In this document: piece by piece, positions 3,012-33,365 of the stretch | How positions within the stretch are numbered: position 1 is the stretch's first letter | How the letters are laid out: each line of letters opens with the position of its first letter | Assembly: GCF_056712565.1 (NCBI RefSeq) | Contig: NZ_CM160072.1 | Strand: one strand, 5' to 3' | DNA length: 64,000 nucleotides | Notes under the pieces: generated by a model | Told to the model about the DNA's origin: nothing | Database searches by the model: none | Seen by the model: only the letters and a program-made list of their open reading frames with translations | Program-made: the position numbers and the translations under genes

Positions 3012-3353
3012 ATGGCAATTAATGGCGCTGCAGCAACTGTTCCATTAAGCCCCGGTGAACGCCTGAATGGACTTAATCACATTGCGGAGTTAAGGGCGAA
3101 AGTTTTTGGCCTGAATATTGAGTCAGAGCTTGAGCAGTTTATTAAAGATATGCGTGATCCACGGGATATCAATAATGAACAAAATAAACGGGCACTGGCT
3201 GCCATATTCTTTATGGCAAAAATTCCAGCTGAACGTCATAGCATCAGCATTAATGAGCTGACCACTGACGAAAAGCGGGAGCTGATTAAAGCAATGAATC
3301 ATTTTCGTGCAGTGGTGAGCTTATTTCCCAGACGGCTAACCATGCCGAATTAA
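3012..3353 (+). CDS. Hypothetical early protein (113 aa)
   Basis: ORF in early operon, same strand. Confidence 0.5.
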   Translation: MAINGAAATVPLSPGERLNGLNHIAELRAKVFGLNIESELEQFIKDMRDPRDINNEQNKRALAAIFFMAKIPAERHSISINELTTDEKRELIKAMNHFRAVVSLFPRRLTMPN

Positions 3354-3414: not shown

Positions 3415-3654
3415 TTGATTATGCGTAATATTGAAACCCTCTCGACCAAAACCGGACCGGATGACGCAGGGCTTAATATTTTACTGACAGAGGCTCGTCT
3501 GGAAGAACGCCGGGCAAGAGCAGAGGCAATGGCTGCCCGCCTTGATAGCCTTGCGTGCCATATCACATCCCGCCAGCTAAACCACGTCGAAGCGGCAGAA
3601 CTGCTGCGCGTGACTGCTGAAGCAATCCAGAACGAAGCGCAGGAGATCCACTAA
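3415..3654 (+). CDS. Hypothetical early protein (79 aa)
   Basis: ORF in early operon; stop overlaps next start. Confidence 0.45.
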   Translation: MIMRNIETLSTKTGPDDAGLNILLTEARLEERRARAEAMAARLDSLACHITSRQLNHVEAAELLRVTAEAIQNEAQEIH

Positions 3655-3881
3655 TGGCTGATGCAATGGATCTCGTACAGCAGCGCGTTGAAGAAGAACG
3701 CCAGCGTCATATCCGTGCTGCCCGTGCCAAAACGCCGGGCGTGTCCCGCGTGCTTTGCATTGAGTGTGAAGCGCCAATTCCGCCAGCACGCCGCCGTGCC
3801 ATTCCAGGTGTGCAGCTTTGCATTACCTGTCAGGAAATCGCAGAGCTGAAAGGCAAACATTACAACGGAGGTGCTGTATGA
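3654..3881 (+). CDS. TraR/DksA-family C4 zinc-finger protein
   Basis: CIECEAPIPPARRRAIPGVQLCITC: two CxxC pairs typical of TraR/DksA zinc fingers; ATGA overlap with dam. Confidence 0.7.
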   Translation: MADAMDLVQQRVEEERQRHIRAARAKTPGVSRVLCIECEAPIPPARRRAIPGVQLCITCQEIAELKGKHYNGGAV

Positions 3882-4735
3882 GCACCATCCTGAAATGGGC
3901 GGGAAATAAAACCGCCATTATGTCCGAACTGAAAAAGCATCTTCCTGCTGGCCCGCGACTGGTTGAACCTTTCGCGGGTTCCTGTGCAGTGATGATGGAG
4001 ACGGAGTACCCCAGCTATCTTGTTGCGGATATTAATCCTGATTTAATCAACCTCTATAAAAAGGTTGCTGCTGATTGTGAATCGTTTATATCTCGCGCCA
4101 GAGTTTTATTTGAGATCGCAAACAGGGAGGTGGCTTATTACAACATAAGGAAGGAGTTTAATTACTCAACTGAAATTACTGATTTCATGAAAGCGGTATA
4201 TTTCCTGTATCTCAATCGTCACGGTTACCGTGGTTTATGTCGCTATAACAAGAGCGGGCATTTCAACATTCCCTACGGCAATTATAAAAATCCGTATTTC
4301 CCTGAAAAAGAAATTCGCGCATTTGCAGAAAAAGCCCAGCGAGCAACGTTTATCTGCGCCAGCTTTGATGAAACGCTGGCGATGTTGAAGGCGGGGGATG
4401 TGGTGTATTGCGATCCACCGTATGACGGTACGTTTTCCGGCTATCACACTGACGGCTTCACTGAAGATGACCAGTATCACCTGGCATCTGTTCTTGAACA
4501 TCGGTCATCAGAAGGACATCCGGTCATTGTTTCTAACAGTGACACATCCCTGATCCGTTCGCTGTATCGCAATTTTACTCACCACTATATCAAGGTAAAA
4601 CGCATCATCGGTGTGGCAGCTGGCGAGGGTAAATCAGCAACAGAAATCATTGCTGTTTCCGGGCCGCGCTGCTGGGTGGGATTTGATTATTCGCGTGGCG
4701 TGGATAGTTCTGCCGTGTACGGAGTACGTGCATGA
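3878..4735 (+). CDS. dam: DNA adenine methyltransferase (Dam-like N6-adenine MTase), prophage-encoded
   Basis: N-terminal SAM-binding region KWAGNK...EPFAGS and catalytic DPPY motif (VYCDPPYDG); start ATG 3878 after GGAG. Confidence 0.85.
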
Positions 4736-7146
4736 GCCATGCCGATATGAACAACTGCTGCGGCTTTAACGAGGCTGCCGCAGCGTTCTCATGGAACAGC
4801 CCGAAAAAGGCCATTAACCCTTATCTGGACCCGGCGGAAGTTGCGCCGGTTTCTGCGCTTTCAAACCTGATCACTCTGTACGCTGCCGATAACGAGCAGG
4901 AACAGTTGCGCCGCGAGGCACTGAGTGATCAGGTCTGGGAGCGTTATTTTTTTAATGAATCACGTGATCCTGTCCAGCACGAAATGGAGCAGGATAAGCT
5001 CATTAGCCGGGCAAAGCTGGCGCATGAGCAGCAGCGTTTTAATCCGGATATGGTCATTCTGGCGGACGTCAACGCCCAGCCTTCCCATATCAGCAAGCCG
5101 CTGATGCAACGTATTGAATACTTCAGCAGCCTGGGCAGGCCAAAGGCTTATTCCCGCTATTTACGTGAGACGATTAAGCCATGTCTGGAACGACTGGAGC
5201 ATGTACGCGACAGCCAGCTATCTGCATCTTTTCGTTTTATGGCAAGCCATGTAGGGCTGGACGGCCTGCTGATTCTGCCTGAAATGAGTCAGGATCAGGT
5301 GAAACGCCTGTCTACCCTTGTCGCTGCGCATATGAGCATGTGCCTTGATGCAGCTTGTGGTGATTTGTATGCCACCGATGACGTTAAGCCAGAAGAAATC
5401 CGCAAGACATGGGAAAAGGTGGCAGCGGAAACCCTGCGTCTGGATGTCATCCCGCCTGCGTTTGAGCAACTCCGTCGGAAAAGAAACCGCCGTAAACCCG
5501 TGCCCTATGAACTCATTCCGGGTTCGCTGGCGCGTATGTTGTGCGCCGACTGGTGGTACCGGAAATTATGGAAAATGCGTTGCGAATGGCGGGAAGAGCA
5601 GTTGCGTGCTGTCTGCCTGGTCAGCAAAAAAGCATCTCCCTATGTCAGCTATGAAGCCGTGATGCATAAACGTGAGCAGCGCCGCAAGTCACTGGAGTTT
5701 TTCCGTTCTCATGAACTGGTGAACGAAGAGGGCGACACGCTGGATATGGAAGACGTGGTAAACGCCAGCAGCAGCAACCCGGCGCACCGCCGCAATGAGA
5801 TGATGGCCTGTGTTAAAGGTCTGGAGCTTATCGCGGAAATGCGCGGTGACTGCGCCGTTTTCTACACCATTACCTGTCCGTCACGTTTCCATTCCACGCT
5901 CAATAACGGCAGACCAAACCCAACCTGGACAAATGCGACGGTAAGACAAAGCAGCGATTATCTGGTCGGCATGTTTGCTGCATTTCGTAAGGCGATGCAC
6001 AAAGCCGGGTTGCGCTGGTATGGCGTGCGGGTGGCTGAGCCGCATCATGACGGTACAGTTCACTGGCACCTGTTGTGTTTTATGCGCAAAAAAGACCGCC
6101 GCGCCATTACTGCATTGTTGCGTAAGTTTGCCATCCGTGAAGACCGCGAGGAACTGGGTAATAACACTGGTCCACGCTTTAAATCTGAGCTGATAAACCC
6201 GCGCAAAGGAACGCCGACAAGCTACATCGCGAAATACATCAGTAAGAACATTGACGGGCGTGGTCTGGCTGGCGAGATCAGCAAGGAAACGGGTAAATCC
6301 CTGCGTGATAACGCTGAATACGTTAATGCCTGGGCGTCTCTGCATCGTGTTCAGCAATTCCGCTTCTTTGGTATTCCAGGGCGTCAGGCTTACCGTGAAC
6401 TGCGGTTGTTGGCTGGTCAGGCGGCAAGGCAGCAGGGTGACAAAAAAGCAGGTGCGCCGGTACTGGATAACCCGCGCCTTGATGCCATCCTGGCTGCTGC
6501 TGATGCTGGCTGTTTTGCCACCTACATTATGAGGCAGGGCGGCGTGCTGGTTCCTCGCAAATATCACTTGATCAGAACCGCTTATGAAATCAATGAAGAG
6601 CCGACCGCCTATGGCGATCACGGTATTCGTATTTATGGCATCTGGTCACCCATTGCAGAAGGCAAGATCTGCACTCATGCAGTGAAGTGGAAAATGGTTC
6701 GTAAAGCCGTTGACGTTCAGGAGGCGGCAGCCGACCAGGGCGCTTGCGCCCCTTGGACTCGTGGCAATAACTGTCCCCTTGCTGAAAATTTGAACCAACA
6801 AGGGAAAGACAAATCAGCTGATGGGGATACCAGGACGGACATTACCCGCATGGATGACAAGGAGTTGCACGATTACCTGCACAGTATGAGCAAAAAAGAG
6901 CGCCGGGAACTGGCTGCAAGGTTACGCCTGGTGAAACCGAAACGGCGTAAAGACTACAAACAGCGAATTATAGACCATCAGCGACAGCAGCTCGTCTATG
7001 AACTGAAGTCCAGAGGATTTAATGGCAGCGAGAAAGAGGTCGATTTACTCCTTCGCGGCGGCAGTATTCCGTCAGGAGCAGGCCTGCGTATCTTCTATCG
7101 GAACCAGCGTTTGCAGGAAGATGATAAGTGGCGAAACCTGTATTAA
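4732..7146 (+). CDS. A: Replication initiation endonuclease gpA (rolling-circle, P2 A family)
   Basis: 804-aa ORF downstream of the early operon; HxH (VHWHLL) and tyrosine-rich nicking region; synteny with P2/186 gene A. Confidence 0.85.
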
Positions 7147-7238
7147 TTACGCGGGTTAACAATTCGTGCTCTTAATAATACCAGGCATATCAGGCTAATG
7201 AACGTAAAAAAACGTTTTACATCAGTAAGATTATTATA

Positions 7239-7258
7239 TACTGTAAATATAAACAGTG
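7239..7258. promoter_or_regulatory. LexA (SOS) box
   Basis: TACTGTAAATATAAACAGTG fits CTGT-N8-ACAG exactly, about 40 bp upstream of the ATG at 7300. Confidence 0.6.
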
Positions 7259-7299
7259 GTTATGTATACAGTATTGCTTGTGGTGTCATAGGAGGAAAG

Positions 7300-7488
7300 A
7301 TGCAGGACTATTTTTTGGAGTCTTTGAAGCTCCAGCGCATTGATTTTTTTCTTAAGCTTGTAGCGGCTAGTGAGTGTAGTGATGAAGAGAAGGGGCTGGC
7401 TTTGCAGTGGGTTTCTGAACTGACAGATGAACTCATGGCAAAAATCAGAACCCACGAATACAACCGCTCAATGGATGTCATCAGCTGA
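7300..7488 (+). CDS. Small hypothetical protein (62 aa), probably SOS-regulated (Tum-position gene)
   Basis: ATG 7300 with AGGAGG RBS; immediately downstream of LexA box. Confidence 0.45.
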   Translation: MQDYFLESLKLQRIDFFLKLVAASECSDEEKGLALQWVSELTDELMAKIRTHEYNRSMDVIS

Positions 7489-7498
7489 GGTGACCTTT

Positions 7499-7732
7499 AT
7501 GCGCATTGAAATAATGATCGATAAAGAGCAGAAGATTAGCCAGTCTACCCTGGACGCCCTTGAATCCGAGCTTTACCGCAATCTGCGCCCCCTGTATCCC
7601 AAAACGGTAATTCGCATCCGCAAAGGTAGCTCTAACGGTGTGGAACTGACCGGACTGCAACTGGACGAAGAAAGAAAACAAGTGATGAAGATTATGCAGA
7701 AGGTGTGGGAAGACGACAGCTGGCTGCATTAA
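7499..7732 (+). CDS. dinI: DinI-like protein
   Basis: MRIEIMIDKEQ...WEDDSWL resembles E. coli DinI (MRIEVTIAK...WESADDWF); co-transcribed behind LexA box. Confidence 0.7.
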   Translation: MRIEIMIDKEQKISQSTLDALESELYRNLRPLYPKTVIRIRKGSSNGVELTGLQLDEERKQVMKIMQKVWEDDSWLH

Positions 7733-7891
7733 GAAAAGTTGCTGGCGTCTGAACTTGGTTCTGGCGTCAGCAAGGTTGAACAACGAGTACAGTGAGGCGT
7801 TAGGTGTGGCGTTTATTTGATGAGTGAACGCCCGTTCTGCGATAGGTTCGGAGATTAAGGTTGAAACTACGGGCAAAATACCATCTTTTTC

Positions 7892-8317
7892 CTACTTAAT
7901 TGAGTCCAGTAACAAGTTACAGTTACTCTCATTGTAGAGAGAACGAGCAATTAGTGTTACCTGCTTTCCATTCATTCCCGGCTTATCCCATAACACAGCT
8001 TCTTGCGACGCCACAAATTCAGCATAATCAATTATGCGTTGTTCGTGATCTGGTTCCTCATAGCCAAAGTATGAGAGCGCATCGTTGTAAGCGTGGTAAG
8101 CTGCTTTCTGTAATATCTTGATATCGGCTGTAGGTACTTGCTCCGTGTAGCTAGGATCTAATTGTGTGCTACTGCCATAGAATGCACATGAAAGGTAAGA
8201 TATTGATTTCTGTTGAGCTTTAGTTCCTTTCTCATAGTTTTTAGCTGTTACCGCCTGAACAGGGACGCTAACAAAGCTTGCAACCAGAATTAAAATTAAT
8301 ACGTAAAAGCTTTTCAT
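7892..8317 (-). CDS. Secreted hypothetical protein (141 aa) with signal peptide; accessory cargo
   Basis: N-terminus MKSFYVLILILVASFVSVPVQA is signal-peptide-like; AT-rich; lies between dinI-like gene and cos. Confidence 0.6.
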   Translation of the reverse strand: MKSFYVLILILVASFVSVPVQAVTAKNYEKGTKAQQKSISYLSCAFYGSSTQLDPSYTEQVPTADIKILQKAAYHAYNDALSYFGYEEPDHEQRIIDYAEFVASQEAVLWDKPGMNGKQVTLIARSLYNESNCNLLLDSIK

Positions 8318-8590
8318 TTTGACCTCAGCCGAAACGTTAGAGAGACTATCGAAATTTGTAAAACCCGTGGCGATTCAGTTTGAGATCCTCCCCCTTACAT
8401 GATTTTTAATCAAATATATGCTTTTGTAAGCATACCTGTTAACCGAATTATTTATTTTTAGAGATCTTCCGACATACTGATTATGCCCGCTGAGGAGTTC
8501 ACCTTGCGTAAAGTCCGATTCGCTTTACTCGTCTGTGCATGTCTATGCTGCATGAGATTGCATGATCGTTTGAGGATCGTTTTTGCTAAG

Positions 8591-8615
8591 GCCCGCCAGA
8601 ACTGGCGGGCTTTTG
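8591..8615 (+). terminator. Rho-independent terminator-like hairpin
   Basis: GCCCGCCA-GAAC-TGGCGGGC followed by TTTTG. Confidence 0.5.
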
Positions 8616-8659
8616 CGTAGATCATGCTCCTGCATGAAAACCACTACATAAAGCGGGCA

Positions 8660-8678
8660 GGCGTGGCGGGGATACGAG
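8660..8678. other. Putative cos (cohesive-end) site of the prophage
   Basis: GGCGTGGCGGGGATACGAG resembles the 19-nt P2/186 cohesive-end sequences as I recall them (GGCGTGGCGGGGA...); lies upstream of portal Q as expected. Confidence 0.45.
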
Positions 8679-8692
8679 CGCGCGCTTGCACC

Positions 8693-8721
8693 TTGATATT
8701 CACGGTTTGGTTAAGTATTGT
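8693..8721 (+). promoter_or_regulatory. Putative sigma70 promoter of the protease operon
   Basis: TTGATA - 17 bp - TATTGT, about 40 bp upstream of ATG 8762. Confidence 0.35.
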
Positions 8722-8761
8722 CTTAGTCAGAGTCCATAACATATTACAGAATGGAGTTGTT

Positions 8762-9409
8762 ATGATTGGTCCTGAATATGTCGTAGTTGTTGGCGTGCTT
8801 AATGCAGGTTTGGTTAGTTTTTTAGGAACAGGTTTTTTTATTTCTAAGGATAAAATAATTACTTCCCGCCATGTTATTAATGGGTTTTCTTCTAACTTAG
8901 TTATTTCTCCATCTAATATAAATAACTTTAATAGTTATCAGGATACAAGTGTTGATAAATTTCAATGTATTGGAGTTGATGTTATTGATGAAGATCCAAT
9001 AAAAGACTTATGTGTGTTAAAAATTAAAAATGCACCTGTTTATGAACCTTGCCTAAAAATTGCTACTCTTGACGATGTTAATGTCGGTGAAGATGTGGGT
9101 ATTTTAGGTTTCCCACATTGTAATGAAAATAGAAAAGTATTGACATTTCAAACGGCAAAAATAGGTGCAAAAGTTTTACTTTCAAGCAGTAATATTCAAT
9201 CTAAACATGCCGTTATAAATATCCAAACCAGACCTGGTCAATCGGGATCGATTGTATTTAATTTAAAAAATGACTCGGTAATAGGCGTCTTGGTTGGCGC
9301 TTATGCAAATAATTCTGGAGGTTCTGTTTTGGTTGGAGGTATTAATCCAGCTGAACTACATCAGACAACTTATGCGGTTTCTGCAGAATATGTTAAGGAT
9401 ATGTTATGA
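8762..9409 (+). CDS. Trypsin-fold (S1/chymotrypsin-like) serine protease, 215 aa; accessory cargo
   Basis: Catalytic triad contexts in order His (ITSRHVING), Asp (DLCVLKI), Ser (RPGQSGSIVF); GGAG RBS; very AT-rich; track ORF 5' extension to 8624 would cross cos. Confidence 0.8.
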   Translation: MIGPEYVVVVGVLNAGLVSFLGTGFFISKDKIITSRHVINGFSSNLVISPSNINNFNSYQDTSVDKFQCIGVDVIDEDPIKDLCVLKIKNAPVYEPCLKIATLDDVNVGEDVGILGFPHCNENRKVLTFQTAKIGAKVLLSSSNIQSKHAVINIQTRPGQSGSIVFNLKNDSVIGVLVGAYANNSGGSVLVGGINPAELHQTTYAVSAEYVKDML

Positions 9410-9852
9410 TTGCTATACCAAATGAAGATGCTGAGTCTTGGTTGTCCACTTTAAAAACGTATCAATCTTCATCTGTCAGGAATTTTCTCGAAAATGGCGA
9501 TGAAGAAAAGGCTCTTGAGCTATGGCTAACTGCATCTGGCCCAAGTTCAGTTGCTCAATTTGGCGGTGATAATTCAAAAATGCCGGGAAGAAAAGCGTTT
9601 GTTGAGCAGTTTAAATTAGAGTTTAAGGCTTTTGTATGTGGAGGTGATAAATATGCAGAGGAGAGGGAATGTTTAGGAGCACTGACTGGTGATGTTAAAA
9701 CATACTTTGTAGGGGTGATCTCTTCGGCAATTGCGGGTTCTTTGGGGGCAACAGCAACATTTATTGCTCCAGCTGTAGTAATTATGTTGATAGCTGTCTC
9801 AAAAATGGGAATTAATGCTTGGTGTTCATTAGAGACAACGACAGAATCTTAG
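9406..9852 (+). CDS. Small protein (148 aa) with C-terminal hydrophobic membrane anchor; partner of the protease
   Basis: ATGA start/stop overlap with protease gene (translational coupling); C-terminal segment YFVGVISSAIAGSLGATATFIAPAVVIMLIAVS is hydrophobic. Confidence 0.7.
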   Translation: MIAIPNEDAESWLSTLKTYQSSSVRNFLENGDEEKALELWLTASGPSSVAQFGGDNSKMPGRKAFVEQFKLEFKAFVCGGDKYAEERECLGALTGDVKTYFVGVISSAIAGSLGATATFIAPAVVIMLIAVSKMGINAWCSLETTTES

Positions 9853-9854
9853 GA

Positions 9855-9879
9855 AAACGCCCTTTTAGGGCGTTTTTTT
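9855..9879. terminator. Bidirectional rho-independent terminator between cargo operon and portal gene
   Basis: AAACGCCC-TTTTA-GGGCGTTT followed by T-run and preceded by A-run; overlaps Q stop codon. Confidence 0.7.
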
Positions 9880-10906: not shown

Positions 10907-12630
10907 AAAATCTCCACAATATTACTGGTATTGGCGGACTCGCCCTGCAGTGGTTCGTTAAACAGTGCGTGCATTGTTGCCCAGGCCAGATCGGCGTGGC
11001 TGGCTTCTTCGCTGCGGCTGGCTTCATAGGTCGGGCGGTTGCCGCTGGCGGTGGTTGCGCGACGGATTGCCATGAATGACTGCGCAATGTCGGTGTGTCC
11101 GGCGTCAAACTCCAGACGGCGGTGGCTGATAATGTCGTAGGCCTTGAGTACCAGGGCGTTTTTAACGTTGGGGTTGTAGACAAACTCCCGGACGGCAGGA
11201 AAGAACGCTTTCACGTTCTCATAAACCCCGTGACCGACACCTGTCGAGTCGATGCCGATATATGTCACGTTGTACTGTTCGGTCAGTTTTTTGATGGCGT
11301 CCGCCTGGGCGCGGAAGTCCATCCCGCGCCACTGGTGACGCTCAAGAATACGGAACTTACCGCCCGGCACGGCTGGCGGAGCCACCACCACGCATCCGGC
11401 ACTGTCGCCGTTCTGCGTACCTTTTGCCGGGTCATAACCGATCCACACTTCGCGCCAGCCAAACGGGCGCAGCGCCAGTGCATGAAAGTCGGTCCAGACT
11501 TCCCAGCTGTCCACCATGCACGCCTGCAATTCGCTGAGCGGGAACACAGATGCGAGATCGTCAACGAACTCGCACATCAGCAGGTTCTGGTATTCGTCCG
11601 GGCTGTACTCCATGCGCAACTGGTCGAGGTCGAACAGGTTACAGCCGCCGCGTACCGCATCTTCCACGGTGACTATCTGGCGGTATTGCCCGTCTGCGCA
11701 CAGCAGGCCGGGGGCCAGATTGCTGTGGGACAGGTCGATGTCCACCTTATCGGCTTTGTTGCGCCCACGGTTGAACAACGCGCCGGACCAGAACGGATAA
11801 GCACTGTGGGTCAGGCTGGATGGCGTGGAAAAATAGGTCTGTCGCCATTTCTTGTGAATAGCCATACCGGAAGCCACTTTGCGCAGCTCCTGAAATTTTG
11901 GTATCCAGAAATATTCATCCAGATACAGGTTGCCGTGATAACTCTGGGCCGTGCGGGCATTGGTGCCTAGGAAGTAAAGCGTGGCCCCGTTAGGAAGCAC
12001 CATCGGATCGCCTTTCAGCTCCACCTCCACTTCTTTGGCGAAGTCGATGATGTACTGCTTAAAGACGTGGGCCTGTGCCTTACTGGCGGAAAGGAAAATC
12101 TGGTTACGCCCGGTAAGCAGAGCGTCAATCAGGGCTTCACGGGCAAAGTAAAAGGTTGCGCCGATCTGGCGTGACTTCAGCAGGTTGCGGATGCGGTTGT
12201 TTTTTCCGGCTTCCCACCAGTGGCGCTGGTAGTTGAACATGGAGGAATGGAAGATTTCTTCCAGCTTCTCAATCTGTTCATCGGTGAAAACGTTCTTTTC
12301 CGGCTGACGGCGCGGGCCTTTGTTGCGGTTGGCGACGTTAGGGTTTAAGTCGGCTTCGTTGCCGCCATTGTTAAACTTGCCGATCCGCGCATGGCGCTCC
12401 GACTGGCGCGCCAGCAGGTCAATCTCTTTGAAATCTTTCCCTTCTTTGTGCTCCTTCATAATGAGCTGGCAGTAGCGTGCGGCGGTGGTGAGCTGCATCT
12501 GATCCAGCGGCCCATAGTCACCCCACTTGTCGCGTTTTTTCCAGCTGTTCCAGTAAGTTTTTTCTAACGGAGCACGGCTCATGACAGTGAAAGCAAAGCG
12601 TTTTCGCATCGGGGTGGAAGGTGCCACCAC
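10903..12630 (-). CDS. P: Terminase large (ATPase) subunit gpP; true start probably downstream of 12630
   Basis: 575-aa ORF following Q; ATPase motifs; 5' end overlaps the divergent capsid ORF so start is uncertain. Confidence 0.85.
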   Translation of the reverse strand: MVAPSTPMRKRFAFTVMSRAPLEKTYWNSWKKRDKWGDYGPLDQMQLTTAARYCQLIMKEHKEGKDFKEIDLLARQSERHARIGKFNNGGNEADLNPNVANRNKGPRRQPEKNVFTDEQIEKLEEIFHSSMFNYQRHWWEAGKNNRIRNLLKSRQIGATFYFAREALIDALLTGRNQIFLSASKAQAHVFKQYIIDFAKEVEVELKGDPMVLPNGATLYFLGTNARTAQSYHGNLYLDEYFWIPKFQELRKVASGMAIHKKWRQTYFSTPSSLTHSAYPFWSGALFNRGRNKADKVDIDLSHSNLAPGLLCADGQYRQIVTVEDAVRGGCNLFDLDQLRMEYSPDEYQNLLMCEFVDDLASVFPLSELQACMVDSWEVWTDFHALALRPFGWREVWIGYDPAKGTQNGDSAGCVVVAPPAVPGGKFRILERHQWRGMDFRAQADAIKKLTEQYNVTYIGIDSTGVGHGVYENVKAFFPAVREFVYNPNVKNALVLKAYDIISHRRLEFDAGHTDIAQSFMAIRRATTASGNRPTYEASRSEEASHADLAWATMHALFNEPLQGESANTSNIVEIF

Positions 12631-13930
12631 CGACGGACGCGAAATCCAGCGTGAATGGCTGGAACAGATGGCAGCCAGCTACAACCCGGCGGTGTATACC
12701 GCGCTGATTAACCTTGAGCACATCAAGTCTTATATACCGGACAGCACCTTTAACCGCTACGGCAAGGTGACGGCGCTGTTTGCTGAAGAAATCACGGAAG
12801 GTCCGCTGGCAGGCAAGATGGCGCTGTATGCCGACGTTGAGCCAACGGAGTCCCTGGTGGAACTGGTGAAAAAAGGCCAGAAATTATTCACCTCTATGGA
12901 AGTCAGCCCGAAGTTCGCTGATACGGGCAAAGCCTACCTGGTCGGCCTGGCTGCCACTGATGACCCTGCCAGTCTGGGTACGGAAATGCTGACATTCAGC
13001 GCCAGTGCAGCCCATAACCCGCTGGCAAACCGCAAGCAGAATCCTGCCATGACTGAGCAGTCCGGTCAGCTGCTGGGGCTGGGTGTTGGCAGCACCATTG
13101 CCGGAACCACTGACACCACCGCAAAAGAGCGTGAACCTGTCGATCCGACGCTGATGGTCGATGTGGAATATAAATGCGAGCAGACCAACTTTGACACGGT
13201 GCTGACCTACGCGAAGCTGGACCTGTGGGCGAAGTTTCAGGATTTCCAGGTGCGTATCCGTGACGCCATCGTGAAACGTCAGGCACTGGACCGCATCATG
13301 ATCGGCTTTAACGGCGTGAAGCGTGCGAAAACCTCCAACCGTAGTGAAAACCCGCTGCTGCAGGATGTGAACAAAGGCTGGCTGCAGAAAATCCGTGAGG
13401 ATGCACCGGATCACGTCATGGGCAGCACCACCACGGGCGGCGAAACCACACCGGGTGCGGTGAAAGTCGGTAAAGGGGGCGAATATGCCAACTTGGACGC
13501 TGTGGTGATGGATGCGGTCAATGAGCTTATCGACGTGGTCTACCAGGACGATGACGATCTGGTGGTGATTTGCGGTCGTGAACTGCTGTCTGACAAGTAT
13601 TTCCCGCTGGTCAACAAAGAGCAGGAAAACAGTGAAAAATTGGCAGCCGATATGATTATCAGTCAGAAACGCATGGGCGGTCTGCAGGCCGTGCGTGCGC
13701 CGTTCTTCCCGCCGAATGCGCTGCTGATCACCCGTCTGGATAACCTGTCCATCTACTGGCAGGAAGACACCCGCCGCCGTTCAGTTATCGACAACCCGAA
13801 ACGTGACCGGATTGAAAACTTTGAATCCGTTAACGAAGCCTATGTGGTTGAGGACTACCGCTGCGCCGCACTGGTGGAAAACATCCAGATTGGTGATTTC
13901 AGCGCCGCCGCAGCCGAAACCGGAGCGTAA
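12581..13930 (+). CDS. Capsid protein with N-terminal gpO-like scaffold/protease region and C-terminal gpN-like major-capsid region in one 449-aa ORF
   Basis: N-terminus FRIGVEGATTDGR resembles P2 gpO start as I recall it; C-terminal half LITRLDNLSIYWQE...DNPKRDRIENFES...VVEDY resembles P2 gpN; single uninterrupted frame. Confidence 0.75.
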   Translation: MTVKAKRFRIGVEGATTDGREIQREWLEQMAASYNPAVYTALINLEHIKSYIPDSTFNRYGKVTALFAEEITEGPLAGKMALYADVEPTESLVELVKKGQKLFTSMEVSPKFADTGKAYLVGLAATDDPASLGTEMLTFSASAAHNPLANRKQNPAMTEQSGQLLGLGVGSTIAGTTDTTAKEREPVDPTLMVDVEYKCEQTNFDTVLTYAKLDLWAKFQDFQVRIRDAIVKRQALDRIMIGFNGVKRAKTSNRSENPLLQDVNKGWLQKIREDAPDHVMGSTTTGGETTPGAVKVGKGGEYANLDAVVMDAVNELIDVVYQDDDDLVVICGRELLSDKYFPLVNKEQENSEKLAADMIISQKRMGGLQAVRAPFFPPNALLITRLDNLSIYWQEDTRRRSVIDNPKRDRIENFESVNEAYVVEDYRCAALVENIQIGDFSAAAAETGA

Positions 13931-17965: not shown

Positions 17966-19924
17966 ATGATAGTAGGGATTTTTTTAAGGTATTTTAAAAC
18001 ATACAACGGAAATCATTACATACCGTTATCTTCTGGAAGTCAGTTTTGTGGAATTGTTGGTAACAATGGAATTGGCAAAAGTTCTGTTCTTGAGGCTTTA
18101 GATTCGTTTATTAATAACAAACCATGGAATATTAATTCTTCATTTAAAAGAACCTCCAGTGACAGACCTTCTCCACATATTGTTCCTTTATATCTTATAA
18201 AGCGAGAGGAATTACATGAAGATCATCATGCTAAAGCTGAAATCTTAACGCAATTAGTATTAGAATATAGCAATAGTAATGCTGATGTTACATTGACGCC
18301 AACAACACGAAATATAATTAATACGTTTTTTGAACATATTAACAAATTAAAAAGAAATTTAAATCTCCAAGATTATTTTTTGATCCCTCTGGGTGTCGAG
18401 AAAGATGGTGATGTAAGTATTTCGATTCTTAATGGGAAGAGTTTATGTCGACTTTTGGAGGTTGATAATCCCGATAATAAAGTTTCGAGCGAGTTGCTTA
18501 GTAAGCACTTTGGGTATTTATTACATCATGTCCGCCATAAGTATGAATATATATATATTCCAAAGGATATAGACTCTGAATCGTTTACGAAGCTAGAAAC
18601 AAGTGAAGTACAAAAGTTGATGGGTGAGTCTTTAGAGCAGATAATTAAAGATAGAATATCTGATAGAACCATAAGTCAAATCAATACAGGGCTTGCCAAA
18701 TTTCTGGATGGTGTTGAAGAGGAGCTTGAAGAATATGGTTATAGAACATCTGGCGAGAGACAATCGCGATTAAAAAAGAAAGATGTTTATAATTTGATTA
18801 TCGAAGCATTCTTCAAAGTTAGGAAATTAAATAAAAAGCAGAATTCAGGTTGGATTGAAATTAGCTCGCTAAGTTCAGGGGAGAAGCAACGTGCAATAAT
18901 GGATATTGCATATGGGTTTCTTACCAATCATAGAGAAAATGGCGATAATCTGATTATTGGAATTGATGAGCCAGAATGTTCTCTTCATATGTCTGCATGT
19001 TTTGAACAATTTGAAAAGCTCTATTCTATTAGTGGTATATGTGAACAATTAATATTTACTTCACATTGGTATGGCTATCTTCCAACCGTCGAAAATGGAT
19101 GTACCACAACTATCCTTAAAACAGATTCAACTCATCATTTTGAATTATATGATCTTGCCAGTTATAGAGAAGAAGTCAGGAAGAAAGTAAAAACCTCTTC
19201 CCCGGGTATGCCATTTGATATAAAAATAAAAAGTGTAAATGACCTTATACAATCCATAATATCTAGCTGTTTGGCTGAGAAACCTTACAATTGGTTGATT
19301 TGTGAGGGTACTACAGAAAAAATATATCTTTCGCATTATCTAAAGGACTTGGTAGAAAATAAAAGGCTAAGGATTGTGCCTGTAGGGGGAGCTAGTGAAG
19401 TTAAAAAAATATTTAAGCATTTAGAAGCTTCTTATGAAGAGTTCAAAAAAGACCTCAAAGGAAAAGTGTTCTTACTAACCGATACAGATTCAGAGTTGGT
19501 GTCATATGATACCCCAGTTATGCCGCATGTTGTTTGTAAGCGAATTGTTAGTGTAGGTGATTCAGTGAAGTTGGTTGATATTTCTTCCAATCCAGTTTCT
19601 CCTGCAACAGAAATAGAGGATTGTCTTAATCCTGTATCGTTTATAGAGGCTTTAACATCATTTTCTTCACGTTTTCCTGAGCTTCAGGCATTGCTGCCTA
19701 ATAGTAATGTTATGATAGATGAAAGACATTCATCGTTTGCTGCGATGGATTTGTCACCCAAGAACAAAAAAACGCTTGATGCTTTTTTTGACCGTGAAGG
19801 AATTAAGTTTGATTTTTCAAAGGAATATATTTCAATCTGTGAGCGAAATGAGCGGAAAAGGCCAGAGTGGATTGCCAAAATTGAAAATTTTTTTATAAGT
19901 GATAAACCTGTAAAGTTTAATTGA
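17966..19924 (+). CDS. OLD-family ATP-dependent nuclease (ABC ATPase + TOPRIM), 652 aa; accessory defence-type cargo
   Basis: Walker A GNNGIGKSS, ABC signature LSSGEKQ, Walker B LIIGIDEPE, H-loop FTSHW; C-terminal TOPRIM-like WLICEGTTE and LLTDTDSE; same motif layout as host YbjD in this window; AT-rich. Confidence 0.85.
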   Translation: MIVGIFLRYFKTYNGNHYIPLSSGSQFCGIVGNNGIGKSSVLEALDSFINNKPWNINSSFKRTSSDRPSPHIVPLYLIKREELHEDHHAKAEILTQLVLEYSNSNADVTLTPTTRNIINTFFEHINKLKRNLNLQDYFLIPLGVEKDGDVSISILNGKSLCRLLEVDNPDNKVSSELLSKHFGYLLHHVRHKYEYIYIPKDIDSESFTKLETSEVQKLMGESLEQIIKDRISDRTISQINTGLAKFLDGVEEELEEYGYRTSGERQSRLKKKDVYNLIIEAFFKVRKLNKKQNSGWIEISSLSSGEKQRAIMDIAYGFLTNHRENGDNLIIGIDEPECSLHMSACFEQFEKLYSISGICEQLIFTSHWYGYLPTVENGCTTTILKTDSTHHFELYDLASYREEVRKKVKTSSPGMPFDIKIKSVNDLIQSIISSCLAEKPYNWLICEGTTEKIYLSHYLKDLVENKRLRIVPVGGASEVKKIFKHLEASYEEFKKDLKGKVFLLTDTDSELVSYDTPVMPHVVCKRIVSVGDSVKLVDISSNPVSPATEIEDCLNPVSFIEALTSFSSRFPELQALLPNSNVMIDERHSSFAAMDLSPKNKKTLDAFFDREGIKFDFSKEYISICERNERKRPEWIAKIENFFISDKPVKFN

Positions 19925-22527: not shown

Positions 22528-23930
22528 GCACAAAATTTTATACCCTGCTGACGGATATTGGCGCGGCGAAACTCGCCAGCGCCGCCGCGCTCGGTGTGCC
22601 TTTAAAAATTACCCATATGGCGGTCGGCGATGGCGGCGGAACATTGCCAACGCCGGACGCCAAGCAGACAGCATTGGTAAATGAGAAACGCCGGGCTGCG
22701 CTGAATATGCTCTATATCGACCCGCAGAACAGCAGCCAGATTATTGCTGAACAGGTGATCCCTGAAAATGAGGGTGGTTGGTGGATACGTGAAGTGGGCC
22801 TGTTTGATGAGTCCGGGGTATTGATTGCCGTGGGAAACTGCCCGGAAAGCTATAAGCCGCAACTGGCTGAAGGCAGCGGGCGTACCCAGACCGTGCGCAT
22901 GGTGCTGATTACCAGCAGTACGGACAATATCACCCTGAAAATCGACCCTGCTGTAGTACTGGCAACTCGCAAGTATGTGGATGATAAGGCACTGGAGCTG
23001 AAGGTGTATGTGGATGACCAAATGGCAAAACACCTTGCCGCAGCGGACCCACATTCACAGTATGCGCCAAAAGCCAGCCCGATATTTACCGGAACCCCCA
23101 AAGCGCCGACGCCAGCGGCGGGGAATAATACCACGCAACTTGCGACCACCGCGTTTGTTCAGGCGGCACTGACGGCCCTTATTAATGGTGCGCCAGCCAC
23201 GCTGGACACGCTAAAAGAAATAGCCGCAGCCATTAACAATGATCCGAAATTCAGTACCACCATTAACAATGCGCTGGCACTGAAAGCGCCGCTGTCGAGT
23301 CCGGCACTCACCGGAACGCCAACAGCCCCTACTGCCGCACAGTCGGTTAACAATACACAGATTGCCACTACGGCTTTTGTGAAATCGGCGATTGCAGCAA
23401 TGGTGGGGTCTGCACCTGCGGCACTGGATACATTGAACGAACTGGCGGCGGCGCTGGGGAATGACCCGAACTTTGCCACGACAATGCTTAATGCGCTAGC
23501 AGGTAAACAACCGCTGGACAATACGCTGACTAATTTGAGTGGAAAGGATGTTGCTGGTCTTCTCGCATACCTTGGTTTAGGAGAAGCGGCGAAAAGGGAT
23601 GTGGGCACAGGAGATAATCAGATACCGGATATGTCTTTCTGGTCTTCCGCATCGGGTGGCGTTAATTTCCCTAATGGATTCCAGATGCGATTCGGTGCTA
23701 TCGCTGGTAATGGTGGAAAATTATTTTCTACGCCATTTACAAATCAGTGCTATGGCATTGTTTTCGGACAAACATATGGAGCCAACTACTGGATGTTCAG
23801 CCCGATGTACAGAGCATCTGATCTGAGTAATACCAGTTTTGCATTCATTAACAAAGCCTGGTCTGGAATTCCGGGGACAGGTGCTCAGGACGCTGGTGAA
23901 TCAGTTTTTTATATTGCAGTAGGGTATTAA
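22524..23930 (+). CDS. H: Tail fibre protein gpH (constant N-terminal part joined to currently expressed variable C-terminal part)
   Basis: 468 aa with Ala/Thr-rich repeats (TTAFVQAALTAL, TTAFVKSAIAAM); crossover site inside the gene. Confidence 0.85.
   Translation: MSTKFYTLLTDIGAAKLASAAALGVPLKITHMAVGDGGGTLPTPDAKQTALVNEKRRAALNMLYIDPQNSSQIIAEQVIPENEGGWWIREVGLFDESGVLIAVGNCPESYKPQLAEGSGRTQTVRMVLITSSTDNITLKIDPAVVLATRKYVDDKALELKVYVDDQMAKHLAAADPHSQYAPKASPIFTGTPKAPTPAAGNNTTQLATTAFVQAALTALINGAPATLDTLKEIAAAINNDPKFSTTINNALALKAPLSSPALTGTPTAPTAAQSVNNTQIATTAFVKSAIAAMVGSAPAALDTLNELAAALGNDPNFATTMLNALAGKQPLDNTLTNLSGKDVAGLLAYLGLGEAAKRDVGTGDNQIPDMSFWSSASGGVNFPNGFQMRFGAIAGNGGKLFSTPFTNQCYGIVFGQTYGANYWMFSPMYRASDLSNTSFAFINKAWSGIPGTGAQDAGESVFYIAVGY
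23560..23585. other. Inversion crossover site (gix/hix-like), left
   Basis: TTCTCGCATACCTTGGTTTAGGAGAA fits the Din-invertase site pattern TTnTCnnAAACCnnGGTTTnnGAnAA (one mismatch); inverted copy at 25351. Confidence 0.6.
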
Positions 23931-23931
23931 T

Positions 23932-24375
23932 ATGGAAATGGTTTATAGCGCCTCAAATAATAGTTTTTTCGCTAAAAATGATGTGGCGAAATATGAACAG
24001 GCCGGATGGGAACTTGCTGATATTGTCGAAGTGACATATGACACTTACCTGGAATTTATTGAAGACAGAACGTTGCAAGGGAAAGTACGCATCGCGGGTG
24101 ATGATGGCCTTCCCACCTGGGGGGAAATTCCACCGCCAACTCATGAGGAACAAATTGCCGCAGCCGAACTGGAAAAGCAGCAATTGATTAATCAGGTCAA
24201 CGAATACATATACAGTAAGCAATGGCCTGGTAAAGCAGCGATTGGTCGCCTGAAAGGTGAGGAACTGGCGCAATATAATTTGTGGCTGGATTATCTGGAC
24301 GCACTGGAACTGGTTGATACCTCCAGTGCTCCAGATATTGAATGGCCTACGCCTCCGGCAGTTCAGGCCAGATGA
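23932..24375 (+). CDS. Tail fibre assembly protein (orientation-1 copy)
   Basis: 147 aa ending ...DIEWPTPPAVQAR, like Tfa chaperones; follows H. Confidence 0.75.
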   Translation: MEMVYSASNNSFFAKNDVAKYEQAGWELADIVEVTYDTYLEFIEDRTLQGKVRIAGDDGLPTWGEIPPPTHEEQIAAAELEKQQLINQVNEYIYSKQWPGKAAIGRLKGEELAQYNLWLDYLDALELVDTSSAPDIEWPTPPAVQAR

Positions 24376-24949
24376 CGTCCGGCGCTGTGCTGGTATCTGT
24401 TGCCGTCACCGCATCAATGTAATCCAGCACAGCGTTAAGTCGGGTGTTTTCTGTCTGCGTCAGCTTCCGCCCGGCCTGCAATTTCAGTTGAATCAGACTA
24501 ATGGAAGCCATTGCAGTATCAATCAGTGACTGACGCTGTGCTTCTGCCGCGTCTAGTGTGGCGCTATGCTGTGCCTCAGTATCTGTCACCCATTTCTCAC
24601 CATCCCATTCATCGTATGGCGTTAACGGGGCGATAGTGGTTGTATTTTCAGGGTAATCACCTGGTGCTGTGATTTCTTTTGATTCTCCTGTTTCGGTGCT
24701 AAAAACGATTTCACCGCGATGGTCTGGCACATATTCCCATGAGTTAAAATCTGCAGAACGGCAGATTGCATAACCAGCTTTACATGTAACTGGTGAATCT
24801 AAACAGGAATATGCAGGGATACCGACACCAATGGCAAGATATTCATTTGAAGTAGAAATATATTCCCGAGTTTTACCATCATAGTTATAGACGGTAATAT
24901 TCCCCGCCTTCGTGGCAATAATCTCGCTATTTAATACGGCGTTATCCAT
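24347..24949 (-). CDS. Tail fibre assembly protein (alternative, orientation-2 copy)
   Basis: 200 aa; C-terminus ...APDVIWPELPEA mirrors the other Tfa; opposite strand inside invertible segment. Confidence 0.7.
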   Translation of the reverse strand: MDNAVLNSEIIATKAGNITVYNYDGKTREYISTSNEYLAIGVGIPAYSCLDSPVTCKAGYAICRSADFNSWEYVPDHRGEIVFSTETGESKEITAPGDYPENTTTIAPLTPYDEWDGEKWVTDTEAQHSATLDAAEAQRQSLIDTAMASISLIQLKLQAGRKLTQTENTRLNAVLDYIDAVTATDTSTAPDVIWPELPEA

Positions 24950-25404
24950 TATGCAGCCCTTACGATATAGTTAAATGCAATATTTCGTGGACGGGTTTCG
25001 CTTCCGCCATATGATGATGTAAATCCCGAATATGCCCGGTGTCCCGCATCCGTCGTATTAGCCCAGGAAGGACCGCTAGAAGTATAGATGACCCCATTGT
25101 AATCATGGCCGTGTGCCTCAATGCTCCCGTCCTGAGCAGACAGGAGAGTCCGTCCTGAATCAATTCCTCTTCCATCATCCCACCCACGAATGAATTCGCC
25201 GCGTAAATCTGGCAATTTATTTGTCGGATAAACTTTTGCCAGTTCCGGATACTCTTCGGCAGAAAAAGCTGCACCGTTGCATTTCAGCCAGCCTGTTGGC
25301 GGTGTGACTGAAGGCCACGGAACAGGCACACCTACGGGTAATGCAGAGCCTTCTCCTAAACCAACGTTTAAGAAAATGCAGCGATTACGACTAACTGGCA
25401 TCAT
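24949..25404 (-). CDS. Alternative tail-fibre C-terminal variable segment (expressed after inversion)
   Basis: 151-aa minus-strand ORF; shares GLGE junction with H at the crossover site. Confidence 0.7.
   Translation of the reverse strand: MMPVSRNRCIFLNVGLGEGSALPVGVPVPWPSVTPPTGWLKCNGAAFSAEEYPELAKVYPTNKLPDLRGEFIRGWDDGRGIDSGRTLLSAQDGSIEAHGHDYNGVIYTSSGPSWANTTDAGHRAYSGFTSSYGGSETRPRNIAFNYIVRAA
25351..25376. other. Inversion crossover site (gix/hix-like), right
   Basis: TTCTCCTAAACCAACGTTTAAGAAAA; inverted repeat of the site at 23560; adjacent to invertase gene. Confidence 0.6.
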
Positions 25405-25431
25405 CCCCGGTTTTTATTCAAGGAGATGATC

Positions 25432-25998
25432 ATGCTTATTGGCTATGTACGCGTGTCAACAAATGACCAGAACACCGATTTGCAACGTAGTGCGCTGAAC
25501 TGCGCGGGATGTGAGCGGATTTTTGAGGACAAAATCAGTGGCACTAAGTCCGACAGACCGGGGCTTAAAAAACTGCTCAGGACACTATCGGCAGGTGACA
25601 CACTGGTTGTCTGGAAGCTGGACAGGTTGGGGCGCAGTATGCGGCATCTTGTTACGCTGATAGAAGAGTTGCGCCAGCGCGGCGTGAATTTCCGAAGTCT
25701 GACTGACAGTATTGATACCAGTACCCCAATGGGCAGTTTCTTTTTTCATGTCATGGGTGCCCTGGCTGAAATGGAACGCGAACTGATAGTTGAACGTACC
25801 AGGGCAGGGCTGGCTGCAGCTCGTGCTAAAGGCAGAGTAGGTGGACGCCGTCCTAAGTTGACTACCGAACAGTGGGCACAGATTGGGCGTTTACTCGAGG
25901 CCGGAGAATCAAGACAGCGTATTGCACTGATTTTTGATGTAGGCGTTTCTACCATTTATAGAAAATTTCCGGCAAATAAGAGCAATGAATCTCCCTGA
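25432..25998 (+). CDS. Serine DNA invertase (Gin/Pin/Hin family)
   Basis: MLIGYVRVSTNDQNTDLQR...VVWKLDRLGRSM... nearly collinear with Mu Gin as I recall it; catalytic Ser in YVRVST; AGGAG RBS. Confidence 0.9.
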   Translation: MLIGYVRVSTNDQNTDLQRSALNCAGCERIFEDKISGTKSDRPGLKKLLRTLSAGDTLVVWKLDRLGRSMRHLVTLIEELRQRGVNFRSLTDSIDTSTPMGSFFFHVMGALAEMERELIVERTRAGLAAARAKGRVGGRRPKLTTEQWAQIGRLLEAGESRQRIALIFDVGVSTIYRKFPANKSNESP

Positions 25999-33287: not shown

Positions 33288-33365
33288 CGCTGCCGCCATT
33301 TTGTCGCCATCGTTAAAAAACAGTGCTTCTAACATCATGATTTTAAACATCTTAAATTTCAGGCA

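Follow-up and report, generated by a model that had tools for sequence, protein, structure and literature searches.

Closest described systems

Among the closest described systems is the Dam methylase of 'retron Ec67', whose element is about 34 kb long with a 26-bp flanking repeat (Hsu, Inouye & Inouye 1990, as outlined in PMC7826664) and has been described as a 186-related prophage (Dodd & Egan 1996, as cited in PMC6868368). Phage-encoded orphan Dam enzymes also occur in T2 and T4 and in the lactococcal phage Phi93 (M.Phi93DAM), where they act on phage DNA in lytic growth. The Ec67 enzyme, named M.Eco67Dam, is reportedly 44% identical to E. coli Dam (EcoDam) according to the original 1990 report. 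For Phi93, protection of virion DNA by the orphan GATC methyltransferase has been demonstrated experimentally (PMC4190342). No functional study of the gene family in P2-like phages was found in the literature that we searched.

Here we analysed a window of 64,000 nucleotides (contig NZ_CM160072.1) that holds a P2/186-family prophage with integrase, CI, Apl/Cox, CII, gpA, portal, terminase and tail genes and ogr. Its right end is marked by a 26-bp att repeat (TAAATTTCAGGCAACAAAAAACCCAT; 33353–33378, from a repeat search), and the left copy lies just beyond the window, beside rcdA. On the + strand at 3878–4735, the prophage carries a 285-codon gene, dam, for a predicted Dam-family orphan N6-adenine DNA methyltransferase (ORF call, profile matches and alignments). 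This gene is already known, its description dating back to 1990, when it was presented as the Dam methylase of 'retron Ec67'. The two share a length of 285 aa and a 186-related element of about 34 kb bounded by 26-bp direct repeats. Unlike the Ec67 element, this prophage has no retron. No reverse transcriptase of a retron Ec67 (msr-msd-RT) type was found at 7146–9878, between cos and the packaging genes, and this interval holds a small ORF, DinI, a secreted protein and the PDC-M35 A/B protease pair, which occupies the cos-adjacent hotspot.

The gene is ordinary, routinely annotated, and standard cargo of one P2/186 (Peduoviridae) branch, which spans Escherichia, Salmonella, Klebsiella and Yersinia. 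The exact protein was found on 702 contigs, and its 90% cluster has 4038 members, among them a 98%-identical protein that bears the name 'retron EC67 DNA adenine methylase'. Annotated homologues are present in 1238 of the 5426 complete E. coli genomes (~23%) and in phages RE2010, Fels-2 (STM2730) and Cartapus. In Fels-2, RE2010, Cartapus, KP12, 4LV2017, SEN8 and ST15-OXA48phi14.1, dam occupies the same slot between traR and A, with equal length, ATGA overlaps, 72–98% identity and shared lineage features; STM2730, at 72%, is likewise annotated as retron EC67 DNA adenine methylase. SEN8 differs in having an additional DnaQ-like exonuclease gene between traR and dam, and the immunity regions and moron hotspots of these relatives differ from those of our prophage. 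As the gene was described in 1990, its discovery value is small. In practical terms, a second, normally silent GATC methylase is predicted in about one in four complete E. coli genomes, as well as in many Salmonella and Klebsiella. Prophage induction could restore Dam activity, which bears on dam-based attenuated vaccines, on Dam inhibitors and on the interpretation of methylomes.

The dam gene and its neighbours

The ORF listing places the dam start codon (ATG) at 3878–3880 and its stop codon (TGA) at 4733–4735. These boundaries agree with the RefSeq call (L001, 20001–20858, 'DNA adenine methylase') in a strain that is identical across dam, and a GGAGG Shine-Dalgarno sequence lies 7 nt 5' of the ATG. 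A longer, TTG-started frame from 3818 is unsupported, as the homologues all share the N-terminus of the ATG-started protein. The product matches PF02086 (E=2.2e-75; 254 bits against a cut-off of 22), with residues 7–242 aligned to profile positions 1–251 of 253, as well as TIGR00571 'dam' (319 bits, cut-off 115) and phrog_56 (E=8e-122), and its best PADLOC model is 'oMTase' (E=1.6e-110). Against NF008152, the NCBIfam equivalog for chromosomal Dam, it reaches 285 bits, under the 441-bit cut-off. Judged by sequence, the predicted protein is a phage paralogue inside the Dam subfamily and not the housekeeping Dam.

Upstream of dam is a gene for a TraR/DksA-type C4 zinc-finger protein (3654–3881, + strand; PF01258, 43.5 bits; TIGR02419, 65.8 bits against a cut-off of 59.7), a homologue of 186 CP81 and P2 orf82. 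Its stop codon (TGA) and the dam start codon share an ATGA. Downstream, the ATG of replication gene A (4732–7146, + strand; PF05840, E=2e-127), which encodes the rolling-circle nickase gpA, overlaps the dam TGA in the same manner. There is no restriction endonuclease next to dam, nor any in the annotation across the whole prophage. The original prediction of a prophage-encoded orphan methyltransferase of Dam type, with a DPPY motif, an early-operon position next to traR and A and no adjacent restriction endonuclease, is confirmed, and the prophage is of P2/186 type. It had identified the gene correctly and had not recognised it as the Dam of 'retron Ec67' and Fels-2 STM2730. Its proposal of translational coupling is also supported, by the ATGA overlaps and by a direct precedent in phage 186, where, according to the phage record, A protein is apparently made only if the preceding gene is translated right through to its end.

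The slot between traR and A is filled differently in other members of the family. In 186 it contains CP82 (exonuclease), CP83 (DUF5405) and orf84 (PAPS-reductase-like), and in P2 it contains orf83 (DUF5405). These genes resemble dam in their early-operon position and are non-essential accessory genes that end in an overlap with the start of A. Their proteins are unrelated to Dam, no methyltransferase is found in the slot, and both genomes strongly avoid GATC.

Active site and specificity residues

Identity to EcoDam is 47% over the whole catalytic domain, the top PDB matches being 2G1P and 4GOL (E=2e-72), and at this level of identity to a solved structure the fold can be considered settled. 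The catalytic motif IV is D179-P-P-Y182, aligned to D181–Y184 of EcoDam and to the DPPY of T2 Dam. The AdoMet motifs I and II are both present N-terminal to motif IV, with F32 and G34 of motif I and D51 of motif II (ADIN) invariant against EcoDam and T2 Dam. Motif I reads FAGSC (F32-A-G34-S-C) as against the canonical FxGxG; the last Gly is Cys in the prophage protein and Leu in T2 Dam.

In EcoDam, GATC is recognised by K9, Y119, N120, L122, R124, P134 and Y138 (PMC4417163). Six of these seven contacts (K9, Y119, L122, R124, P134 and Y138) are kept as K6, Y117, L120, R122, P132 and Y136, with no change at the positions that read base pairs 1, 3 and 4 of GATC. The sole changed contact is N120, replaced by R118; the equivalent position is Ser in T2 Dam, which is a bona fide GATC enzyme. 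The protein also differs from EcoDam in lacking a five-residue loop after DPPY and in having a 25-aa C-terminal tail (aa 261–285), which is absent from both EcoDam and T2 Dam, and in being phage-borne and under the predicted control of a lytic operon. Distant homologues have no tail, and alignments to them end at residue ~260. Relative to T2 Dam, identity is only 22%, the context is that of a temperate P2-family phage, and the hosts already have a Dam of their own.

Homologues were compared from phages of Escherichia, Salmonella and Klebsiella, five in all; each has an intact ORF of 285 codons, and dN/dS is 0.09–0.36, values that indicate that dam is under purifying selection. Substitutions in the motifs had been proposed beforehand as the sign of an inactive enzyme, and motifs I, II and IV and the GATC contacts are intact in a gene that appears to be selectively maintained. 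From homology and genome composition, we infer that the enzyme is specific for GATC.

R118, the shortened post-DPPY loop and the tail (CW.G.D...VRA) are lineage features that this prophage shares with Fels-2, whose protein is 72% identical, and this conservation might suggest that the enzyme has an altered or relaxed specificity, methylating sites beyond GATC or acting processively with the replication machinery to give broader protection. We regard this as extremely unlikely. The readers of base pairs 1, 3 and 4 are all conserved, position 120 is variable among true GATC enzymes, and evolution has been quicker in the tail (dN/dS up to ~0.5, from few substitutions only) than in the core. In addition, the tail may exist only because the frame must reach the start of A. 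Tail homologues are few and show little diversity. It was also considered whether the tail is left over from the C-terminal end of 186 orf84, to which it bears only a faint likeness (SS..GV; 11 of the last 15 nt) that is better explained by the constraints of the A ribosome-binding site and start codon.

Predicted expression within the early operon

The early operon runs in the order apl, cII, (fil), DUF5347, DUF2732, traR, dam, A, and synteny around the dam slot was seen with 186, P2, Fels-2, RE2010 and SEN8. A 186-type CI immunity repressor is encoded on the − strand at 1132–1701 (RefSeq call; a longer ORF extends to 1806). In the cI–apl switch region, a candidate early lytic promoter pR (TTGACG-17-TATGTT; 1726–1754, + strand) was identified by consensus match only, in a position analogous to pR of 186, which the phage record describes as controlled by CI. 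The following + strand genes, assigned by profile match and annotation, are the first gene of the operon, for an Apl/Cox-like excisionase-repressor (1827–2048), a CII-like regulator (2081–2590), a DUF5347 gene (3012–3353) and a DUF2732 gene (3421–3654; homologue of 186 CP80 and P2 orf80). This places dam ~2.1 kb into the CI-repressed operon. The pR candidate is the only + strand promoter-like site between the repressor gene and dam, and our promoter and terminator scan found neither a further + strand promoter nor a convincing terminator between pR and dam. On the basis of this layout, dam is predicted to belong to the repressor-controlled early lytic operon and to lack a promoter that serves it alone. 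Expression in lysogens from an internal promoter was considered and rejected, with no + strand site and promoter-like totals at chance (9 vs. 10.6 expected). In Fels-2, STM2729 (A) and STM2730 (dam) change jointly in microarrays (PMC3844500).

These features bear on the suggestion in the original prediction that the enzyme could alter host methylation in lysogens, changing the methylome or epigenetic regulation of the host. The wide occurrence of the prophage family, through which ~23% of complete E. coli genomes have a second dam-like gene, would give such an effect scope; some extra Dam activity could come from induction that is leaky or spontaneous, and over-production of Dam is mutagenic (PMC5014478). 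However, dam lies deep in a CI-repressed operon in which no separate promoter-like site serves it, its neighbours belong to the replication module, away from both moron hotspots, and its predicted GATC specificity would duplicate that of the host Dam, which already methylates nearly all sites. Mutants in dam of S. Typhimurium LT2, a strain that carries Fels-2 STM2730, reportedly lack GATC methylation, which also counts against an effect in lysogens. We therefore consider this suggestion highly improbable, and the original prediction is not upheld here. An E. coli EC958 prophage methyltransferase, M.EcoMIV, is a Dam homologue and is poorly transcribed in the lysogen (Forde 2015; PMC4659465). 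The P2-like prophage of EC958, located beside serS, has no dam, which means that M.EcoMIV is in another prophage, and its RT-PCR data are therefore not applicable to the dam studied here.

This prophage carries two deletions in head genes, and because of these, dam in this strain may no longer serve a productive phage.

GATC content and the role of Dam

GATC content was compared as a Markov-based observed/expected ratio (O/E) across 12 genomes, which are phylogenetically non-independent, setting the Dam-less clades Peduovirus and Eganvirus against a Felsduovirus-like group and one Firavirus. In the seven Dam-encoding P2-family genomes, O/E is 0.64–0.81 (97–130 sites), while host flanking DNA gives 0.82 and our prophage 0.69, slightly under its relatives. 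In the Dam-less P2, Wphi, 186 and PSP3, O/E is 0.13–0.23 (14–30 sites), and GATC tops the list of depleted palindromic tetramers in these four only. The presence of Dam is thus associated with a host-like GATC content, with a four- to five-fold gap in GATC content between the two groups. The Dam-less P2-like prophage of EC958 is only mildly depleted (O/E 0.54–0.60). Causation between GATC content and dam could go in either direction. The contrast fits the classical explanation of GATC counter-selection in enterobacteriophages through under-methylation and MutH (McClelland 1984; Deschavanne & Radman 1991, as discussed in PMC5014478), and offers a clean, testable handle on why these phages avoid the site.

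Taking the evidence as a whole, the best explanation, which we consider likely, is that a GATC methylase is produced alongside the replication protein and keeps phage DNA methylated during its fast replication. The product would be an active, GATC-specific orphan N6-adenine methyltransferase, transcribed from the long pR operon only once CI repression is lifted, and the ATGA overlaps would link its translation to that of A, the initiator of replication. Because of this operon membership and coupling, Dam would be made at the onset of rolling-circle replication and roughly in proportion to it. It would add to a host Dam activity that is limiting, giving full methylation of the ~100 GATC sites in phage DNA, whether rapidly replicating or packaged, and GATC-directed functions of the host would then not handle this DNA as unmethylated or hemimethylated. 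The main threat averted would be incision by MutH/MutHLS; others would be any DpnII-type restriction encountered in a new host and possibly SeqA binding. We infer GATC specificity in vivo, lytic-only expression and the primacy of MutH among these threats.

A related proposal, also raised in the original prediction, is that Dam serves as classical anti-restriction, pre-methylating phage DNA against DpnII/MboI-type or other restriction–modification systems in the next host. The gene is an orphan without a cognate nuclease, and a phage GATC methyltransferase blocked DpnII in Lactococcus (PMC4190342). Since the branch spans the four genera mentioned above, its DNA would meet varied hosts. However, the known hosts of Dam-carrying P2-family phages all carry their own Dam, which makes classical GATC restriction an unlikely main target. 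An enzyme that cuts unmethylated GATC would have to be paired with a Dam-like one and would have no hold on phage grown in any enteric host, except through under-methylation, at which point the proposal merges with the explanation that we prefer, and residue comparison gives no sign of a non-GATC motif. Of the original proposal, then, the protection of phage DNA stays plausible in light of the GATC contrast between Dam-carrying and Dam-less phages, and is probably directed at MutH-type attack rather than at classical restriction, which as a distinct role we consider unlikely.

It has also to be considered that Dam produced in a burst upon induction has the host chromosome as its main target and does not protect phage DNA, blurring strand discrimination in mismatch repair, altering SeqA/oriC sequestration, or raising recombination or mutation. 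The co-expression of dam with host-manipulating early genes, such as Fil (cell division) and Dhr (host replication) in 186 and TraR/DksA-type RNA polymerase effectors, is consistent with this, as is the mutator phenotype upon Dam over-expression (PMC5014478). An action on the host would, however, leave unexplained why phage GATC content tracks the presence of dam, and we consider it very unlikely.

Returning to methylation of phage DNA during replication, we tentatively suggest, at somewhat less than even chances, that acquisition of a Dam cassette just upstream of A freed this whole branch of the P2 family from the GATC avoidance to which its Dam-less cousins are held by a limiting host Dam together with MutH, the conserved tail and obligatory coupling to gpA tying methylation to rolling-circle replication. 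If true, Dam would be a counter-measure to a host mismatch-repair endonuclease that acts as a de facto restriction system, and the P2 family would be a natural experiment on the long-debated avoidance of GATC by enterobacteriophages.

We see no grounds for a conserved cluster of GATC beside the replication origin, or for an ori-linked control by methylation, as there is one shared site only. The equivalent of the P2/186 ori nick site lies within gene A (CGCCCCTTGGACTCGTGGCAATAACTGT; 6747–6774, + strand, placed by alignment with the ori annotated in P2 and in 186), and in this prophage GATC occurs at −186, −140 and −90 from it. Near the ori, the −140 site alone is common to RE2010 and Fels-2, while 186 and P2 have none there.

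Identity of the gene and of the element that carries it

The 285-codon open reading frame dam (3878-4735, + strand; start ATG at 3878, stop TGA at 4733-4735) has a GGAGG Shine-Dalgarno 7 nt 5' of its ATG, and matches PF02086 (D12-class N6-adenine methyltransferase, E=2.2e-75), TIGR00571 'dam' (319 bits, cut-off 115), phrog_56 (E=8e-122), and the PADLOC 'orphan methyltransferase' profile (E=1.6e-110). It lies between a TraR/DksA-type gene (3654-3881, +; PF01258 and the TraR-family model TIGR02419, both above cut-off) and the replication gene A (gpA; 4732-7146, +; PF05840, E=2e-127). The TGA of the TraR-type gene overlaps the dam ATG, the gpA ATG overlaps the dam TGA, and both junctions read ATGA. 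RefSeq calls exactly the same three genes in a near-identical strain (a single base differs in the opening 12.5 kb of the window), as 'TraR/DksA family transcriptional regulator', 'DNA adenine methylase', and 'replication endonuclease'. No restriction gene is annotated in the neighbourhood of dam or in the prophage, and the original prediction of a Dam-type methyltransferase with these neighbours and no adjacent restriction gene was confirmed in every particular by profiles, overlaps, and annotation. Three GATC sites occur within dam, one of which (4412-4415) is spelled by the codons of the catalytic Asp-Pro of DPPY (GAT CCA).

This is an intact, ordinary gene that has been known since 1990 and is routinely annotated. 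As quoted in a Klebsiella paper (PMC7826664), Hsu, Inouye & Inouye (1990) placed retron Ec67 within an element of 34 kb that has 26-bp direct repeats on either side and codes for a Dam methylase; Dodd & Egan (1996) demonstrated that it is a prophage related to 186 (as cited by PMC6868368). The element studied here fits it in size, 26-bp repeat, 285-residue Dam, and ~47% identity of that enzyme to E. coli Dam; the P2 hotspot adjacent to cos holds the retron in the Ec67 prophage, whereas here it holds a PDC-M35 pair, a PADLOC candidate defence system (8624-9409, A, E=8e-94; 9406-9852, B, E=4e-58), consisting of a trypsin-like S1 protease and a small protein of no assigned function.

The identical protein is found on 702 contigs. 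At 90% identity it belongs to a cluster of 4038 members, among them a 98% identical protein called 'retron EC67 DNA adenine methylase'. Of 5426 complete E. coli genomes, 1238 contain homologous DNA, and in all of the matches listed the order is TraR, dam, replication endonuclease. Phage records with homologues number 58, among them Salmonella phage RE2010, Escherichia phage Cartapus, and many P2-like phages of Klebsiella; STM2730 of Fels-2 (S. Typhimurium LT2) is 72% identical, sits in the same slot, and owes its annotation to similarity with the Ec67 methylase. Intact Dam reading frames 5' of gene A were missed by GenBank in two Yersinia phages, vB_YenM_42.18 (L007 4310-5149), where small fragments are annotated, and MLG42 (L022 25989-26837), where the frame falls in an unannotated gap.

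The cargo between the TraR-type gene and A varies among relatives: a DUF5405 gene in P2 and Wphi; a DnaQ-like exonuclease, DUF5405, and a PAPS-reductase-like gene in 186; one unrelated ORF in PSP3; the DnaQ-like exonuclease plus Dam in SEN8; and Dam alone in the window prophage, RE2010, Fels-2, and ST15-OXA48phi14.1. Wphi, which has no Dam, encodes a cytosine methyltransferase (mth, L018 29419-30357) in the hotspot next to cos, a different DNA-modification solution within the same phage family.

Enzyme integrity and predicted specificity

The closest solved structures are those of E. coli Dam (EcoDam; 2G1P and 4GOL, E=2e-72, residues 4-263 aligned), to which the prophage enzyme is ~47% identical. 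When the prophage Dam is aligned with EcoDam, T2 Dam, and phage homologues, no variation is seen at F32 and G34 of the AdoMet motif, at the motif II aspartate (D51), or in the catalytic D179-P-P-Y182. Inactivating substitutions in these motifs would have spoken against function; the catalytic and cofactor motifs are intact, as is the gene in all five homologues compared, from phages of three host genera (dN/dS = 0.09-0.36). The GATC-contacting residues of EcoDam (K9, Y119, N120, L122, R124, P134, and Y138; PMC4417163) correspond to K6, Y117, R118, L120, R122, P132, and Y136. The sole change is N120 to R118, and R118 is common to the prophage Dam and Fels-2 STM2730, together with a post-DPPY loop shorter by five residues and a 25-residue C-terminal tail; alignments to more distant phage Dams stop at residue ~260. 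In T2 Dam, which is a GATC enzyme, the same position is a serine.

GATC avoidance within the P2 family

In Dam-carrying phages, gene A contains 8-13 GATC sites, versus 1-2 in P2 and 186, and this contrast led us to compare whole genomes, using GATC observed/expected ratios under maximal-order Markov and zero-order models (given in that order). The Dam-carrying genomes were the window prophage (0.69/0.75), RE2010 (0.79/0.87), Fels-2 (0.76/0.90), SEN8 (0.77/0.87), MLG42 (0.81/0.93), ST15-OXA48phi14.1 (0.77/1.00), and YenM_42.18, whose Dam is 53% identical (0.64/0.73); the host flank within the window gave 0.82/1.11. Dam-less P2 (0.20/0.19), Wphi (0.23/0.24), 186 (0.13/0.12), and PSP3 (0.22/0.21) are strongly depleted, with 14-30 sites per genome versus 97-130 in the seven Dam carriers, and only in these four is GATC the most depleted of the 16 palindromic tetramers; the remaining palindromic tetramers showed no difference between the groups. 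The genomes sampled are few and phylogenetically non-independent, and the rule is not absolute, since a Dam-less P2-like prophage of E. coli strain EC958 is intermediate, with only mild depletion (0.54/0.60). That prophage adjoins serS (L004 25487-49001 plus L005 1-14445) and carries ParM-type partition genes.

The pattern fits the classical avoidance of GATC in enterobacteriophages (McClelland 1984; Deschavanne & Radman 1991), in which, as discussed in PMC5014478, limiting host Dam leaves fast-replicating phage DNA under-methylated and exposed to MutH. As a matter of genome composition, it supports the view that the enzyme recognizes GATC, acts on phage DNA in nature, and benefits the phage by protecting its DNA. 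We regard this contrast inside the P2 family as the sole point worth taking forward.

The anti-restriction role first proposed was right in spirit as to protection of phage DNA, but a classical restriction-modification system is a less likely target. All known hosts of this P2/186-type phage group have Dam, which makes GATC-directed machinery of the host itself, working on under-methylated DNA, the likelier adversary. A precedent for protection is the lactococcal phage Phi93, whose GATC methylase shields its DNA from DpnII (PMC4190342).

Operon structure and expression

Past the repressor gene, the sole promoter-like site on the + strand (1726-1754) lies in the cI-apl switch region, at the position of 186 pR; between it and dam we found neither another + strand promoter-like site nor a convincing terminator, a weak negative as the scan was at chance level overall. 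The curated 186 record carries more weight: there, CI represses pR, the promoter of the entire early lytic operon; the genes that separate the TraR homologue (CP81) from A are non-essential; 'Translation to end of orf84 appears necessary for translation of A protein'; and a terminator within A is active when A is untranslated. The ATGA overlaps give the same arrangement here, with dam replacing CP82-CP83-orf84. Gene order, overlaps, and the 186 record uphold the reading of dam as an orphan methylase gene of the early operon that is coupled to both TraR and A. Together with the joint shift of A and dam transcripts in Fels-2 (PMC3844500), this layout leads us to infer that dam is expressed in the lytic cycle, coupled to A.

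The original prediction also allowed for altered host methylation in lysogens, which is unlikely because of the early-operon position and a predicted specificity redundant with host Dam. RT-PCR data on an EC958 prophage Dam homologue (PMC4659465) were inapplicable to dam expression, as the P2-like prophage that we located in EC958 is without dam. The switch region contains two GATC sites (1744-1747, in the spacer directly 5' of the predicted pR -10, and 1778-1781), whereas that of 186 has none. An antisense promoter-like site lies inside dam (4281-4308, -; TTTTCA-16-TATAAT, 10/12 matches), with the regional total at chance level.

State of the prophage

The window starts within the integrase gene of this P2/186-family prophage, whose insertion adjoins rcdA (ybjK). 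The 26-bp direct repeat TAAATTTCAGGCAACAAAAAACCCAT occupies 33353-33378; its second copy falls immediately outside the left edge of the window, next to rcdA, and the two enclose about 33.8 kb. The prophage carries a 186-type CI repressor, Apl/Cox, CII, a decayed fil, DUF5347, DUF2732, TraR, Dam, and gpA, followed by DinI and the cargo hotspot, then portal, terminase, capsid, lysis, and tail genes, and ogr.

Two deletions were scored against all closest complete E. coli genomes. One, of 231 bp (12548|12549), takes out codons 1-40 of terminase gene P together with the divergent P/O promoter region; the other, of 554 bp (13046-13049), leaves scaffold gene O and capsid gene N joined in frame as a 449-aa fusion ORF (12581-13930). 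Unless this is an assembly error, the prophage is probably defective for head assembly; if the deletions are real, this copy cannot make heads, and a defective prophage would be carrying dam as a passenger. Intact prophages elsewhere have copies that are 100% identical to this dam.

Between the tail-completion gene and baseplate gene V, the prophage's second moron/defence slot, a 652-aa OLD-family protein (17966-19924) combines an AAA_15 ATPase and an OLD-like TOPRIM domain, with AriA and Old as best PADLOC matches. The tail-fibre and tail-fibre-assembly segment (23572-25367) is in opposite orientation to that of strain APEC E16002 and an invertase ORF follows at 25426-25998, consistent with a Cin/Gin-type invertible host-range switch in its other orientation. 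The homologue of fil, a cell-division inhibitor (2598-2753), is called a truncated pseudogene by RefSeq in the near-identical strain, and is followed by a 74-aa ORF (2765-2989; phrog_4312) absent from RE2010. Outside the prophage, nfsA is intact, and APEC E16002 has an IS1 insertion at the point that corresponds to window ~36985-36993.
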